DNA from: an uncultured Clostridia bacterium
Lineage (GTDB): Bacteria > Bacillota > Clostridia > TANB77 > CAG-508
DNA: 63,419 nt
Assembly (NCBI GenBank): GCA_944390395.1
Contig: CALXPY010000002.1
Coordinates: forward strand, 1-63,419
Direction of reading: 5' to 3'
Under the pieces are notes generated by a model that was given only the letters and a program-made list of their open reading frames with translations, did no database searches and was not told where the DNA came from. This document shows positions 24,713 through 62,655 of the stretch, piece by piece. The position numbers and the translations under genes were made by a program. Every line of letters starts with the position of its first letter. Positions within the stretch are counted from its first letter, which is position 1.

Positions 24713-24985
24713 GTATAACAAAAACGGTAATAAAGGACACGGTAATTATAATTTAATCTTTAGAGAGCCAAAAATACTGGTGAAATTTTGGTAGATAAAA
24801 TATAGTTATTATCACCTTTAGAGTTGCTTATTTGAAATAAAATGTAAGGTAAGCCGTAATTCTTGCGTTAAAAGAATAAGAGTGGAAAGATAATTATATA
24901 AGATTATCTTTTAAGTTAGGTGGTACCGCGGAAATATATAAGAGCCATTTCGTCCTAAATATAAGGAGAATTGGCTCTTTTTGTT
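24713..24985 (+). promoter_or_regulatory. T-box leader (tRNA-sensing riboswitch) controlling ileS
   Basis: AGAGAG and GGTGAAA stem I elements; T-box sequence AAGTTAGGTGGTACCGCGG 24913-24931; terminator AAGAGCCA...TGGCTCTT+T 24940-24983. Candidate specifier ATC at 24811-24813 (low confidence). Confidence 0.88.
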
Positions 24986-38927: not shown

Positions 38928-40799
38928 ATGAATTGGCAAGTTGTATATTTAACTGTAAATCCAAAAGGAGCAATAAGAAATGGAGAGGAGGTAAAAGTAG
39001 AACTTCGGATATCAAACAAAGTAGGGTTTGTAGATAATGTATTAATGCTTTTTAATGTGCAAAATAGTACTATCTATAAAAAAGTGTCATTACATTATAC
39101 AAAAACTGTAGATGAATATAGTTTCTTTGAAGCAACATATTCATTAGAGAGAATAGGTCTACATTATTATAACTTTTCTTTAACAATCAATGGAAAAAAC
39201 AAATTCATAAGGAGGAATCCAACAACTAAAGAACCGTGTATTACGGAAAACAATATGGAGTATTGGGAGCAAACAGTATACCATAATAGTTTTAATACAC
39301 CAGATTGGTCAAAAGGAGTAATGTATCATATTTTTGTTGATAGATTTAGAAGAGATAAAAGTGTGGTACTTCCAGAAATGAAAAATAGAACAATCCATTC
39401 TAATTGGTATGAAATGCCAGATTGGAAGCCAAATGAGAAAGGAGAAATAACCAACACAGATTTTTTTGCAGGTAATCTAAGAGGAATTACTAATTCTCTG
39501 AAATACATAAAAAAATTAGGAGTAAGTATTCTGTACCTTAGCCCTGTAATGCAAAGTCAATCGAATCACAGATATGATACAGCAGACTACGAGAAAGTTG
39601 ATCCTTATTTAGGAAGCAACGAAGATTTAAAAAGATTATGTGACAAAGCACATAGCTTAGGAATGAAAGTTATTTTAGATGCTGTATTTAATCACACTGG
39701 AAATGATAGTAAGTATTTTAATCAATTCCACAATTTTGATACTGCTGGTGCATTCGAAAGTCAGCAGTCACCATATTATAGTTGGTATAAGAGAAATGGT
39801 AATTCATTTGACTATTGGTGGAATTTTAAAAATTTACCAGTATGTAATGGAGATAATCCAGATTATCAAAACTATATTTATGGTGAAGGTGGAATAATAG
39901 ACCAATGGTTTCAATTAGGGATTGATGGAGTACGCTTAGATGTGGCAGATGAATTAACAGAAAATTTTATATTCAATATAAGAAAAGCTGTTAAAAGAAA
40001 TAATCCAGAAGGCTTTGTTTTAGGAGAAGTCTGGGAGAATGCCATAACTAAGGAAAAGTATGGAATACAACGGACGTATCTATTAGGAGAGGAATTAGAT
40101 ACTGTAATGGATTATCCACTTACAGATGCAATTTTAAAATATGTAAGATTTGGAGATTACCAATATTTTAAAGAAACGGTGGAAAAAATCTTACAGTTGT
40201 ATCCAAAACCTGCTATTAATTCTATGACCAACTCTTTATCGACACATGATATAACAAGAGCCATAACTACATTAGTAGGAGATGGAATATATCATAATAG
40301 ATATCAATGGACCTGGGATATAGGTGGGCTTAGTAGACAGTGGCAGTTTGAACATGATGAGTTATCAAAAGAAAAATACAAAGTTGGTAAGCTTATGTTT
40401 AAATTAGCCACAATAATGCAATACACTATGCCAGGAATTCCATGCATATTCTATGGTGATGAAGTTGGAGTCTGTGGTTATAAAGATCCTTTTAACAGGA
40501 AACCATATCCTCATGCCAAAAGAGACAAAGAATTGCTAAAATTCTTTAGAAGAATAGGAAAAGTAAGAAATAAGTTAGAATTCTTAAAAGAAGCGGAGTA
40601 TGAACTTTTACAACAAAATGAAAACTTTATTATATATAAAAGATATAATAAAGAACAAGAAATAGTAGTGATAGTAAAAAGAACAGATGGGTTATTTGTT
40701 ATTCCTAAGGAATATTCAGAATATAATCCAATATTTTCTTTAAACTATCAGAATTACATTATTAAAGGAAAAGGAGCGGTTATTTTGCACAAACCATAA
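38928..40799 (+). CDS. Glycoside hydrolase family 13 (alpha-amylase superfamily)
   Basis: DAVFNHTG, GIDGVRLDVADEL, GEVWE, STHDITR conserved regions I-IV. Confidence 0.88.
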   Translation: MNWQVVYLTVNPKGAIRNGEEVKVELRISNKVGFVDNVLMLFNVQNSTIYKKVSLHYTKTVDEYSFFEATYSLERIGLHYYNFSLTINGKNKFIRRNPTTKEPCITENNMEYWEQTVYHNSFNTPDWSKGVMYHIFVDRFRRDKSVVLPEMKNRTIHSNWYEMPDWKPNEKGEITNTDFFAGNLRGITNSLKYIKKLGVSILYLSPVMQSQSNHRYDTADYEKVDPYLGSNEDLKRLCDKAHSLGMKVILDAVFNHTGNDSKYFNQFHNFDTAGAFESQQSPYYSWYKRNGNSFDYWWNFKNLPVCNGDNPDYQNYIYGEGGIIDQWFQLGIDGVRLDVADELTENFIFNIRKAVKRNNPEGFVLGEVWENAITKEKYGIQRTYLLGEELDTVMDYPLTDAILKYVRFGDYQYFKETVEKILQLYPKPAINSMTNSLSTHDITRAITTLVGDGIYHNRYQWTWDIGGLSRQWQFEHDELSKEKYKVGKLMFKLATIMQYTMPGIPCIFYGDEVGVCGYKDPFNRKPYPHAKRDKELLKFFRRIGKVRNKLEFLKEAEYELLQQNENFIIYKRYNKEQEIVVIVKRTDGLFVIPKEYSEYNPIFSLNYQNYIIKGKGAVILHKP

Positions 40800-40823
40800 A
40801 CTAAAAATACAATGTGTTTTTAG

Positions 40824-40857
40824 TCCCCTAATGGCCTAAGCTGTTAGGGGAATTTTA
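40824..40857 (+). terminator. Rho-independent terminator after the GH13 gene
   Basis: TCCCCTAA / TTAGGGGA stem, then ATTTTATT. Confidence 0.7.
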
Positions 40858-40872
40858 TTATGCACTTTTTCC

Positions 40873-40901
40873 TTGACAATTGAAAATAGTTAATATAAAA
40901 T
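40873..40901 (+). promoter_or_regulatory. Promoter driving the SSR-containing mini-ORF
   Basis: TTGACA 40873-40878, 17-nt spacer, TAAAAT 40896-40901. Confidence 0.5.
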
Positions 40902-40970
40902 TTAACCATAATTGAAAAATAATTAATTTAAATCTTTTCCAATTAAAAAAGTAAGAGGAGAATGAAAAGT

Positions 40971-41036
40971 ATGAAGGCTAAAACCGTTGCCGTTGTAGAG
41001 AGAGAGAGAGAGAGAGAGCTATGTTTTAGAGAATAA
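40971..41036 (+). CDS. Mini-ORF MKAKTVAVVERERERELCFRE containing an (AG)11 tract
   Basis: SD AAGAGGAG 40953-40960, ATG 40971 (alternative ATG 40962), stop 41034-41036; expression not demonstrable from sequence. Confidence 0.3.
   Translation: MKAKTVAVVERERERELCFRE
40997..41018. repeat. Perfect dinucleotide microsatellite (AG)11
   Basis: 22 nt of uninterrupted AG read directly in the sequence. Confidence 0.98.
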
Positions 41037-41085
41037 AACAGGTTTAGTTTTTGTACCTAAATTTAGAATATATTATGTAAAATAT

Positions 41086-41119
41086 AGAACGTATCGAATT
41101 TTTTGGATGCGTTCTTTTT
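41086..41119 (+). terminator. Rho-independent terminator after the mini-ORF
   Basis: AGAACGTATC / GATGCGTTCT stem (one G-U), then TTTT. Confidence 0.7.
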
Positions 41120-41184
41120 GTGTGCTTTTTTCGGATTTTACTAGTGGATATATATGAAATATAAGAATTAAATTATTCTTTAAT

Positions 41185-41359
41185 CGTGATAGTAATAATA
41201 TGTTTTTTCTTGCTCGTCCCAACTCTTAAGAACCTGTAGAAAATTTTGTTTAATCTAATGTTTACAAAGGTTAAAACTAGAGAAACAAAATTTTAACAGT
41301 TTCTAAATAGTCGGTCCCCACACGCAGCTCGCTACGAAAAAAATATTATTACTATCACG
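41185..41359. mobile_element. Inverted-repeat-bracketed 126-bp segment: candidate invertible DNA switch (alternatives are a MITE or a long RNA hairpin)
   Basis: Left arm CGTGATAGTAATAATATGTTTTTTC 41185-41209. Right arm GAAAAAAATATTATTACTATCACG 41336-41359. 17-bp perfect core (41185-41201 / 41343-41359), 24/25 overall with one indel. Confidence 0.45.
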
Positions 41360-41452
41360 TAAAGAGTGAAATTTTATATAAATAGCAAAAATATATTAGC
41401 ACTATTGGAAGAATAAAGTTAAAGATAAAAAAGAAGAGGAGAATTGAAATTT

Positions 41453-42503
41453 ATGAAAATTGTAAAAGAGAAAAGAGGAATAACATTAATAGCATTGGCA
41501 GTAACAATAATTGTTATTTTGATATTAGCGGGAGTGACAATAGATGCAGTATTTAGTGAAAATGGAATAATAAATAAAGCAAAAGAAGCGGCAAATGCAA
41601 TGAATAATGCAGTAGCAAATGATCAAGCCGAGCTAAATGATTTGTTTGAAGAATTAAATGAAATAATGAATTCGGAATGGAATAATAATATAGAAATACC
41701 AGATCCAGGACCAGATTTACCAACAAAAATAGAAGATGTAACAGACATACAAGATGAAACCATACAAGTAGAAGACGAATATGGGAATAAAGTAACAATC
41801 CCAAAAGGTTTTGAAGTAGTGGAAGAAGAAGGAACAACAGTACCAGAAGGAATAGTAATACAAGATAAAGATGAAAATCAATTTGTGTGGATACCAGTAG
41901 GAAGAGTGTATAAAGACGCAAGTAAAACAAATTATAGTGATATACAATTAGGAAGATATACGTTTAATACAAGTAATGGTACACCTACACCAGTACAATT
42001 AGCTTATACAGAAGAAAGTTCAGAAAATTATAAACAATTAGTATCATTAAATTTTAACGGGAATAATTATCAGGAATATGCAACTAGAGCAAATCCAGAT
42101 GGAATAGTATCAAGTGGAACTAATGGACTTAATGCAATAGCAAAAGACTTAGAAGGATTTGTAAATAGTGTAAGAGATAATGGTGGATATTATTTAGGAA
42201 GAATAGTATTTATACAAGAGATGGGGCATACAAATTATGCAAATAAGAATAGTGTAAATAAAGAAATTAAAAATACGGGAACCATTGGAGATGAAGTATG
42301 CAATATACATGATATGTCTTCTAATATAGAAGAATGGACTACAGAATACTGTACTTATTCAGATAGTAATATGGCACGACCATGTACGGAAAGACGGAGG
42401 ATATTATTCATGGGATAGTTATACCACATGTACAAGATCTTACTATGTTTCTGAATTTTCTACTCTTATAAAAGGATTTCGTATATTGTTATATATAAAA
42501 TAA
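41453..42503 (+). pseudogene. Prepilin-type N-terminus + FGE/SUMF1-like domain surface protein, frameshifted near 42385-42396
   Basis: MKIVKEKRGITLIALAVTIIVILILAGV pilin-like leader; QFVWIPVG and NIHDMSSNIEEWTTEYC FGE-like motifs. ORF stops at 42418, but the next frame continues GGYYSWDSYTTCTRSYYVSEFSTLIKGFRILLYIK* to 42503. Confidence 0.7.
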
Positions 42504-42570
42504 ATTTTAATAAGCAATAAAATTATACCACATTTCATGCTATAAACTAAAGTGACGTATATTAAAATTT

Positions 42571-43936: not shown

Positions 43937-44036
43937 ATTCATTGTAGAAAATAATATATATTATTTTAGTATAATTTTGGCTAAAAAATGTATAATATTA
44001 ATAAACGTATATCTAAAGAAAAGGAGAATGTTAAAT

Positions 44037-44423
44037 ATGATTAAAAATGTAAAAAATGTAATTTTAGTAAGTGGATTAGTTTTAGCTATTATGTTCTGTT
44101 TAGTTAGTCCAGTATTTGCAACAGATACAAATAACGCTGTTGATTTACCTATAATATCAAATAATGAGGCTACTACAGATAACAATGAACAAGTAAACAA
44201 TCAAGAAGAAAATAATACAGTAGCTAACAATGAGGAAAATAATACTGAACCTGAATTAAACAATGAAAATGTCAATAATTCAAACACAAATACAGCTGCA
44301 AATGGTACTCTACCACAAACTGGAGTAACAGAAGATGCTACTATTATATTTTTTATAGCAATATGTATTATTTCTGCAATCTATGCTTATAAAAAAATTA
44401 GAGATTATAAAAATATTAAATAA
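44037..44423 (+). CDS. Small N/E-rich LPXTG cell-wall-anchored protein
   Basis: Signal peptide ...VSPVFATD, LPQTG + hydrophobic segment + KKIRDYKNIK tail. Confidence 0.85.
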   Translation: MIKNVKNVILVSGLVLAIMFCLVSPVFATDTNNAVDLPIISNNEATTDNNEQVNNQEENNTVANNEENNTEPELNNENVNNSNTNTAANGTLPQTGVTEDATIIFFIAICIISAIYAYKKIRDYKNIK

Positions 44424-44431
44424 AAATATAG

Positions 44432-44459
44432 AGGAACGAATATTAAATCGTTCCTTTTT
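44432..44459. terminator. Terminator shared by the convergent LPXTG and sortase genes
   Basis: AGGAACGA / TCGTTCCT stem, then TTTT; overlaps the sortase stop. Confidence 0.7.
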
Positions 44460-45198
44460 CTTTTGCTTTTACAACAATTCTTGTGCCATTTACATTATTA
44501 CAAGTCAGTAAAGTTATTATTCTTTTGCCTCCTACATCTTGAGAAGTACAAGATAAATCATCTACTTCTACTTCATATTTATCATAAACAACGTAATCTA
44601 ATTTGTTTCCAGTGTAATCATATATTTGTACAATATCATTTTTTTCTAGTTCATTTAATCTACTAAACAATTTATAATCTACATAGTTATGACCTGCTAT
44701 ACAAAGGTTACCCACTTCATTAGGTAAAGGGCCTGCAAACCTACAAAGAGACATTTTTAATAATTCTTTATTACTTTGTGATAAGATAGGATAGTTTAAG
44801 TTTATTTTATCTATTTTTATCATGCCTATTACAAACAAAGATGATTTATCTACAGAATTATTTAACTTTTCGGTTTCATAATTGTTGTCCTCTGAATATA
44901 ATGTGGTCAAATTAAAGGAATTTAATAACTGCTTTGACATTTTTTCTTTTTTGGTATTTAAATAGTTATTAATATAAAAAACAAATATAAAAATGATTGC
45001 TGCAATGGATGAAATAATAAATTGAAATTTGTATTTGAATTTGTTTTTGACTTTAGGAATATTTTTTTTGTCTTGAGGAGACTTATTCTCTTCAAATGGA
45101 ATGGAAGAAATTTCGTTGCTAAATTCTACATTTATTTTTTTCTTAAAGTTATTTTCTTTAGATAAGATTTGATTCATTATTAAACTCATTCCTTTCAA
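44443..45198 (-). CDS. Sortase (cysteine transpeptidase)
   Basis: N-terminal TM, CIAGHNY histidine region, ITLLTCNN catalytic TLxTC, R in VVKAKE region. Start uncertain (TTG 45198, or ATG 45189/45177). Confidence 0.85.
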   Translation of the reverse strand: MKGMSLIMNQILSKENNFKKKINVEFSNEISSIPFEENKSPQDKKNIPKVKNKFKYKFQFIISSIAAIIFIFVFYINNYLNTKKEKMSKQLLNSFNLTTLYSEDNNYETEKLNNSVDKSSLFVIGMIKIDKINLNYPILSQSNKELLKMSLCRFAGPLPNEVGNLCIAGHNYVDYKLFSRLNELEKNDIVQIYDYTGNKLDYVVYDKYEVEVDDLSCTSQDVGGKRIITLLTCNNVNGTRIVVKAKEKGTI

Positions 45199-55332: not shown

Positions 55333-55538
55333 TATGTTGAATATAATGCGCTGAAAAAGAAAAAATATAATTTGCTTATTTAAAGAGAGTTAGTGTATGG
55401 TGAAAACTAATAATAAGTAATATATGGGGAGCTTTGGAGCATATAATAAATAAGGTGGATAAGTAAACTTATCAAATAGGGTGGAACCGCGGAAAAACTT
55501 TCGTCCCTAGCTAAATATAGCTAGAGGACGTTTTTTTT
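55333..55538 (+). promoter_or_regulatory. T-box leader (short glyQS type) controlling glyQS
   Basis: AGAGAG and GGTGAAA stem I elements; T-box AAATAGGGTGGAACCGCGG 55474-55492; terminator CGTCCCTAGC...GCTAGAGGACG 55502-55530 + T8. Confidence 0.88.
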
Positions 55539-62579: not shown

Positions 62580-62655
62580 GCTATTGTAGCTCAGTTGGTA
62601 GAGCAACAGATTCGTAACCTGTAGGTCGGGAGTTCGATTCTCCCCAGTAGCTCCA
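62580..62655 (+). tRNA. tRNA-Thr (anticodon CGT), CCA encoded
   Basis: Hand-folded cloverleaf: acceptor GCTATTG/CAGTAGC, D-arm GCTC-AGTTGGTA-GAGC, anticodon loop TTCGTAA, T-arm GGGAG-TTCGATT-CTCCC, 3' TCCA. Confidence 0.9.

Follow-up and report, generated by a model that had tools for sequence, protein, structure and literature searches.

A perfect run of eleven AG dinucleotides in the DNA of an uncultured Clostridia bacterium is probably the variable element of a phase-variation switch, acting through a short leader open reading frame (ORF) and an intrinsic terminator that precede a gene for a pilin-like protein. We infer this from analysis of sequence and by analogy with a system of known mechanism. 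The inference is carried by five observations: the anatomy of the cassette that holds the tract, the conservation of this cassette in multiple copies, natural polymorphism of the tract length, conservation of the three possible reading-frame outcomes, and covariation in the terminator hairpin.

The window, by which we denote the whole 63,419-nucleotide stretch of DNA analysed, has 28% GC and a plus strand of 60% purine (A 42%, G 18%), on which nearly all long ORFs lie. A preliminary description, made from the sequence alone, had noted the AG run as the only one of its kind in the window, and repeat scans bore this out: by Tandem Repeats Finder and a regular-expression scan, the perfect (AG)11 at 40997-41018 is the sole dinucleotide run of seven or more units in 63 kb, and dinucleotide-preserving shuffles yield an expectation of 0.01 occurrences for even a 14-nt AG run. 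The amylase gene upstream ends at 40799 and has a terminator of its own (40824-40851). Beyond it the following features were identified.

40873-40901, plus strand: sigma-70-type promoter, TTGACA-17-TAAAAT, matching at 11/12 positions and the best site in the region
40953-40960, plus strand: Shine-Dalgarno (SD) sequence of the leader ORF, AAGAGGAG, read from the sequence
40971-41036, plus strand: leader ORF as it stands at 11 units, 21 codons, MKAKTVAVVERERERELCFRE, with its TAA at 41034-41036; predicted OFF or low frame
40997-41018, plus strand: (AG)11 tract, the proposed hypermutable element, on the basis of repeat scans, shuffles and length variation in relatives
41020-41157, plus strand: extension frame, used only when the number of units is a multiple of three (3n); 45 codons, YVLENKTGLVFVPK...FTSGYI, with TGA at 41155-41157
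41022-41040, plus strand: small hairpin directly 3' of the tract, UGUUUUA-GAGAA-UAAAACA, predicted by RNAalifold
41086-41131, plus strand: intrinsic terminator, with stem 41086-41095/41106-41115, a 10-nt loop, then TTTT (41116-41119) and TTTTTT (41126-41131)
41176-41366, no strand assigned: segment flanked by inverted repeats (IRs), between terminator and gene, with arms at ~41176-41208 and ~41336-41366 and IR cores GTGATAGTAATAATAT (41186-41201) and ATATTATTACTATCAC (41343-41358)
41453-42418, plus strand: proposed controlled gene, a member of the pilin-like family, with SD at 41434-41441

The promoter, SD, 21-codon ORF and terminator that the preliminary description had assembled into a compact unit were thus each recovered; the terminator, which it had placed at 41086-41119, has a predicted folding energy of -14.9 kcal/mol (z = -3.2). 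Both of its predictions about reading frame also held. Gain of one AG unit opens a frame that crosses the hairpin to the TGA at 41155-41157, 23 nt 3' of the terminator T tract, and loss of one unit gives ...ERERERAMF*, with its stop at TAG 41027-41029. At the 11 units present in the window, 49 nt separate the leader TAA from the start of the terminator stem (41086). Both out-of-frame stops, TAG 41027-41029 and TAA 41034-41036, lie inside the small hairpin at 41022-41040, which is followed by a U-rich stretch. A simple terminator scanner missed the window hairpin because its loop measures 10 nt, and flagged the same hairpin as terminator-like in two relatives (L007, L013). A scan of 40700-41600 against Rfam, at gathering thresholds and with E-values up to 10, gave no meaningful match; a match to 'MIR2646' was discarded as merely reflecting the long palindrome of the IR element. 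Elsewhere in the window, two T-box leaders and one tRNA gene (24718-24960, 55342-55511, 62580-62652) all scored above the Rfam gathering scores.

Comparison with DNA of relatives, fetched by way of large flanking proteins or proteins of the downstream family and so irrespective of the state of the tract, showed that these features recur as a unit. As defined here, the cassette consists of the promoter and SD, a start region ATGAA[AG]GC..., the (AG)n tract, 26 nt without variation, the hairpin and T tract, and a TGA common to the copies. It is found ahead of other genes of the pilin-like family at unrelated genomic places, in the settings below.

After the amylase gene: the window, L001, L004, L006 and L027
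Between TraX and rpsO-pnp: L007, L008, L010 and L012
Upstream of dxs: L013 and L014
After mntP: L018 (the family gene found there is also present in L019 and L020)
Before a DUF362/ferredoxin gene: L021-L026

The promoter is retained in the form CTTGAC..N..TTAATATA[AG]AAT in L003, L007, L018, L019 and L021, and in cassettes with a canonical promoter the SD lies 6-10 nt 5' of the conserved ATGAA[AG]GC; the SD is weak in L028 and L029. A further ATG upstream, at 40962, is not kept in other cassettes. Several of the samples hold more than one such locus, from which it follows that one genome carries several cassettes. Contigs often break just 3' of the promoter or within the tract (L002, L003, L006, L020, L026), because cassettes are near-identical between loci. 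The stretch from the region of transcription start to the SD (40905-40960) is near-identical at another locus (L021-L025), with only 2 mismatches in ~55 nt in L021. Such near-identity between loci of the same genomes is the probable reason for the break of L002 and L003, two independently assembled contigs, at ~40918-40922; the notion of a variable boundary at that position was dropped in favour of this simpler explanation. Interrogation of other collections added little: the conserved 24-mer GTTTTAGAGAATAAAACAGGTTTA, 3' of the tract, had no match in viral contigs; JGI metagenome contigs contained no match to the exact tract-flank pattern, nor did an amylase-guided protein scan of them yield one; and a scan of genome contigs retrieved one relative only, whose contig ends just past the promoter. 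Some cassettes (L013:2100-2290, L018:1080-1290, L019, L028, L029) bear an extra palindromic element of ~110 bp between the leader stop and the left IR, with AT-rich 25-nt arms (GTTATATATATTATTTTCAAAAACA / TGTTTTTTCAAATAATATATATAAC) around a GC-rich core; it is absent from the window.

The preliminary description would have been refuted by a tract of invariant length across strains, and this is not what the relatives show. At the orthologous locus of another sample (L027), where amylase gene, cassette and family gene occur together, the tract is (AG)12 rather than (AG)11; the two sequences are 98% identical over 3684 bp, and the tract is the sole gap in the alignment. At the paralogous locus between TraX and rpsO, 13 units occur in L010 vs 11 in L007, L008 and L012, and 12 and 9 units were read directly in the DNA of L028 and L029, respectively. 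A protein search with the hypothetical product of a 12-unit tract retrieved 80 clusters of predicted 61-67-aa proteins that correspond to in-frame cassette alleles, their Glu-Arg runs implying 12 units (53 clusters), 9 (23), 6 (3) and 18 (1). Lengths of 6 and 18 units are accordingly inferred from predicted proteins, and lengths of 9, 11, 12 and 13 were seen in DNA. This census is biased by ascertainment, since only in-frame alleles are long enough for gene calling. Among the complete tracts in loci fetched irrespective of frame, 15/16 measured 22 nt and the remaining one had 13 units, so that none of the 16 was in frame; the 15 tracts of 22 nt stem from at least five loci and many samples, and in L019 the 22-nt length is kept despite a G-to-A interruption. 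The tract is polymorphic, with a strong mode at 11 units that is not fully explained. A freely slipping tract should drift, and therefore the exact length or the 21-aa peptide may be selected; possible contributors to the modality are toggling between 11 and 12 units with a bias to contraction, gene conversion among cassettes, and selection on the short peptide or on exact length. The contigs that begin within the tract (L006, L020, L026) are compatible with heterogeneity of length, and equally with a cassette present in multiple copies. Taken together, the criteria for a simple-sequence-repeat contingency locus are met as regards an over-long repeat, placement that changes reading frame, and a difference of length between strains; for switching within a clone there are no data.

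Frame outcomes and covariation were compared in 11 distinct cassettes, taken irrespective of frame. In all 11, the 11-unit frame ends in LCF[RK]E* (TAA) and the frame of 10 or 13 units in [MV]F* (TAG), both stops falling 2-5 codons 3' of the tract. The 3n frame, in all 11 likewise, remains open for 45-46 codons, over the hairpin, to one common TGA, and across the same 45-46-codon span the other two frames contain 1-7 stops. The sole indel between cassettes is of 3 nt. When the observed number of differences was applied randomly to the window sequence, the 3n frame stayed open by chance in 12-38% of trials per sequence, and the cassettes that keep it represent several lineages that are only partly independent. 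The terminator stem is paired in 110/110 cells across the 11 cassettes and shows compensatory changes at 2 pairs (G-C to A-U and A-U to U-A), giving a covariation score that 0/500 shuffles reached. The seven pairs of the small hairpin at 41022-41040, on the other hand, are all invariant in the 11 cassettes and yield no covariation evidence either way. Variable columns in the extension number 14, 9 and 16 at codon positions 1, 2 and 3; since they are not concentrated at position 3, translation itself, and not the peptide, seems to be selected. The six residues encoded over the hairpin loop vary freely, and the flanking residues vary in step with the pairing of the stem. What these patterns seem to preserve is an open path for the ribosome across a functional hairpin.

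Beyond the small hairpin and the terminator, RNAalifold on the 11 cassettes predicted just one weak 3' helix and no alternative pairing to an arm of the terminator; in the absence of antiterminator pairing and of any Rfam leader match, the criteria for an amino-acid-sensing attenuator of the trp/his type are not met. Pairing of (AG)n with the U tract of the terminator, as an antiterminator, looked weak by eye and was not supported by RNAfold or RNAalifold. A protein-binding array like that of TRAP, considered because GAG triplets recur in the tract, was set aside on grounds of spacing.

The predominance of one length could also be read as fixity. On such a reading a fixed 22-nt tract, with a 21-codon ORF or a promoter-to-terminator RNA of ~220 nt, would constitute a small peptide gene or small RNA, and the length variants would be purposeless slippage mutants. 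The 22-nt length of 15/16 tracts fetched without regard to frame, from at least five loci, and its maintenance across the interruption in L019 are in keeping with this, as are the codon that follows the tract (in the 11-unit frame always Leu, as CTA, TTA or TTG) and the presence of a dedicated promoter and terminator. We nevertheless consider it unlikely, since it leaves unexplained why, in every cassette, the 3n frame is open for 45-46 codons over the terminator, why the one indel is of 3 nt, and why the other frames are filled with stops; in addition, no Rfam family matches the region, and in-frame alleles are many and reside on otherwise intact cassettes. Much the same anatomy makes it very improbable that the tract is a neutral microsatellite in a 5' leader and that control of the family gene rests solely with the invertible segment and larger rearrangements. 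Such a segment and rearranged arrangements do exist (L009, L020, L021), and no expression data link tract to gene; yet a neutral tract would not keep the same place in the translated ORF of every cassette, nor would it adjoin invariant flanks that give stops in exactly two frames and, in the third, an open path over a covarying terminator.

It could be held instead that the real gene is the one encoding the 61-67-aa protein of the 3n alleles, switched by the tract, with the window representing an OFF allele. The 80 predicted clusters, 65 of which end in ...FTSGY[IV], and the conservation of the 3n frame in loci fetched without frame bias lend this some substance. The manner of variation tells against it: substitutions are not biased to third codon positions, and the six residues over the loop vary freely while their flanks follow the pairing of the stem. 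A terminator and T tract inside an ORF, 23 nt before its stop, would be odd for a protein gene, and a Pfam domain is recorded for 0/80 of the clusters. We give this account little credence, and retain the leader-ORF switch as the preferred reading.

The switch would operate as follows. Transcription would start from the promoter at 40873-40901, and ribosomes would load at the SD and the ATG at 40971 and translate through the tract. With 11 (or 10, or 13) units they would stop at TAA 41034 or TAG 41027, ~50 nt before the stem; once they are gone, the hairpin at 41086-41115 would form and few transcripts would extend beyond the T tract, which corresponds to the OFF or low state. Slipped-strand mispairing that brought the number of units to a multiple of three (9, 12, ...) would carry ribosomes 45-46 further codons over the hairpin to the TGA at 41155, and a ribosome close behind the polymerase would block formation of the stem, so that transcripts would extend past the IR-flanked segment and reach the pilin-like gene (from 41453), the ON state. 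No other plus-strand promoter was predicted between 40902 and 41452. Firing of the promoter, termination by the hairpin, its override by translation and the identity of the ON state are inferred, without RNA or protein data. The suggestion of the preliminary description that repeat length toggles the position of the ribosome over the terminator hence draws support from the anatomy of the frames, the covariation of the hairpin and the precedent in Streptococcus gallolyticus described below, in the absence of expression data.

It also weighs against the switch that the terminator is separated from the gene by some 300 nt, part of which is a probably invertible segment whose effect is unknown, and that the window's copy of the controlled gene looks degraded. 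Another consideration concerns coupling. Strong purine bias has been associated with runaway transcription, where the polymerase outpaces the ribosomes, and with avoidance of Rho (PMC13323073). Given the purine-rich plus strand, runaway transcription would weaken ribosome-mediated anti-termination unless the polymerase pauses. A polymerase pause at the small hairpin (41022-41040) could give the ribosome time to catch up; with no variation among the hairpin's pairs, this role is no more than an inference.

The IR-flanked segment at 41176-41366 is a probable invertible DNA switch, so judged from alignments, and would form a second layer of control with unknown effect; no recombinase has been identified. 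Its inner 106 nt occur in both orientations among relatives, L007 (2313-2451) and L013 (2312-2450) being 98% identical when one is taken as the reverse complement and 72% identical when compared directly. It was paralogous loci that differed in orientation; no single locus showed both. Searched in either orientation, the segment yielded neither a sigma-70 promoter nor a terminator. Other forms of the segment are short or collapsed (L020, L028) or retain a single IR (L021-L025). In L009 (984-2500), at the TraX-rpsO locus, a second family gene (425 aa) takes the place of the leader cassette and stands head-to-head with the first across the IR-flanked segment; this arrangement suggests that the shared inverted repeats also recombine on a larger scale, in the manner of a shufflon or an expression-site system. 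Clostridioides difficile has invertible switches upstream of surface and flagellar genes, among them the cwpV and flgB switches, and the recombinase RecV. Such switches of C. difficile are also described in PMC8890394. The element at 41176-41366, as distinct from the AG tract, resembles them as a short IR-flanked leader segment between a fixed promoter and the gene for a surface protein. It differs from them in that no recombinase is identified, orientations differ only between loci, and no orientation-specific terminator or promoter was found.

The gene at 41453-42418 belongs to a large family: a search retrieved 6214 matches, mostly of 420-430 aa. The preliminary description had called its product pilin-like, and this stands as far as a resemblance of the N-terminal helix goes; curated profile thresholds for pilins are not reached. 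The score against PF07963 (N_methyl) was 11.3 bits, vs a cut-off of 21.2, so that the threshold for a type IV pilin or pseudopilin is not met, and that against TIGR01710 was 14.4 bits vs 88.85; a profile search of the PDB with the family protein gave only a weak match, to geopilin (E = 0.12), and an AlphaFold2 model of it had a pLDDT of 36. 'Pilin-like' thus denotes resemblance only. A suspected resemblance of the family C-terminus to FGE-sulfatase domains was unsupported in Pfam, NCBIfam and PDB searches. Relative to the family protein P0004, the window gene lacks 71 residues in frame (at 42205); a frameshift at about residue 250 was ruled out, the change there being this in-frame deletion of 71 aa. 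Nearer the 3' end, at ~42385-42505, the +1 frame encodes ...GGYYSWDSY...GFRILLYIK*, similar to the family C-terminus ...YSFRLTLYVK*; from this similarity a frame shift near the 3' end is suspected, and the copy may be decaying. L001 is 99.9% identical to the window, and all 10 differences fall in ~50 nt (41874-41925) within the family gene, a cluster that marks either a patch of local hypervariability or a short tract of gene conversion. A short distance downstream of the switch locus lies a further surface-display pair: a sortase gene (44443-45198, minus strand) and, next to it, the gene for a small protein rich in Asn and Glu that bears an LPQTG sorting signal (43977-44423).

The nearest mechanistic parallel is the phase variation of the pil1 and pil3 loci of S. 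gallolyticus, which depends on GCAGA repeats in a leader peptide gene and on a premature terminator (Danne et al. 2014, PMC3894217). There, the leader stop of the low state lies 49 bp before the terminator, default-frame stops in that work being 28 nt or more from the stem; expression is high when a frame shift lengthens the peptide as far as the hairpin, and the effect requires translation and the leader start signals (PMC3894217). The AG cassette shares with pil1/pil3 the succession of promoter, SD, repeat-bearing short leader ORF and intrinsic terminator ahead of a structural gene, a default stop ~49 nt 5' of the stem, and a shifted frame that lengthens the peptide into or through the hairpin; its 3n frame, ending at 41157, past the T tract, meets the pil1-type criterion of a frame that ends within or beyond the stem. 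Common to both, too, are a surface appendage protein as product, a presumed one in the case of the AG cassette, and the presence of more than one locus per genome. There is, however, no sequence homology: the repeat is AG rather than GCAGA (2 nt vs 5 nt) and the peptide is unrelated, which makes this a likeness of mechanism and not of descent. Whereas both shifted frames reach the hairpin in S. gallolyticus, only one of three does so in the AG cassette, which is moreover present in multiple copies before a family of thousands of members, has an invertible segment 3' of its terminator, and resides in an uncultured Clostridia bacterium of ~28% GC for which there are no experimental data. On the strength of sequence features and this analogy, the AG cassette looks like a second, independently evolved case of the pil1-type switch.

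Other contingency systems share single elements of the arrangement. Outer-membrane protein genes of Helicobacter pylori carry CT/AG repeats within the structural gene, where a frameshift truncates the protein itself. The AG cassette is like these loci in having a dinucleotide tract of about 10 units, change by slipped-strand mispairing and a frame-dependent outcome for a surface protein, and unlike them in having its tract in an ORF of its own upstream of the gene, with termination of transcription as the step predicted to be affected. In pyrBI attenuation of Escherichia coli, the leader ORF runs through the attenuator hairpin and a translating ribosome suppresses termination; an upstream pause synchronises ribosome and polymerase, and the signal is physiological (UTP-dependent pausing), not a heritable change of repeat length. 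The likeness lies in the ribosome over the terminator, and the hairpin at 41022-41040 could play the part of a synchronising pause of the pyrBI type. In the vlhA genes of Mycoplasma gallisepticum, a GAA repeat lies upstream of the promoter of each gene, untranslated and with no terminator. Shared with vlhA are a large family of surface proteins, a separate upstream repeat for each copy, and the restriction of expression to certain repeat numbers.

It is conceivable, though we hold it only tentatively and think it rather doubtful, that each of the thousands of family members is controlled by three stacked switches (the AG leader ORF with its terminator, the invertible segment, and IR recombination as in L009), with the hairpin as a pause that re-couples ribosome and polymerase against a background of runaway transcription, and that the three together generate combinatorial antigenic variation of a sort not known to have been described in Clostridia.

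S. gallolyticus is to date the one organism in which a repeat in a leader peptide is known to control anti-termination. If the switch proposed here is real, its independent invention with another repeat, in a distant and uncultured gut lineage and ahead of a huge family of surface proteins, would mark the mechanism as a general solution and not a curiosity. Further cases could be sought by their signature, an SD-led mini-ORF bearing a repeat, with two frames stopped and the third open across a terminator. There are consequences for annotation and for the comparison of strains as well: in-frame alleles are the only ones visible to gene callers, which list them as hypothetical proteins of 61-63 aa, and assemblies break at the cassettes. 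Should the stacking with an inverton also prove real, these loci would be a tractable model for studying how gut commensals vary their surface under several layers of stochastic control.
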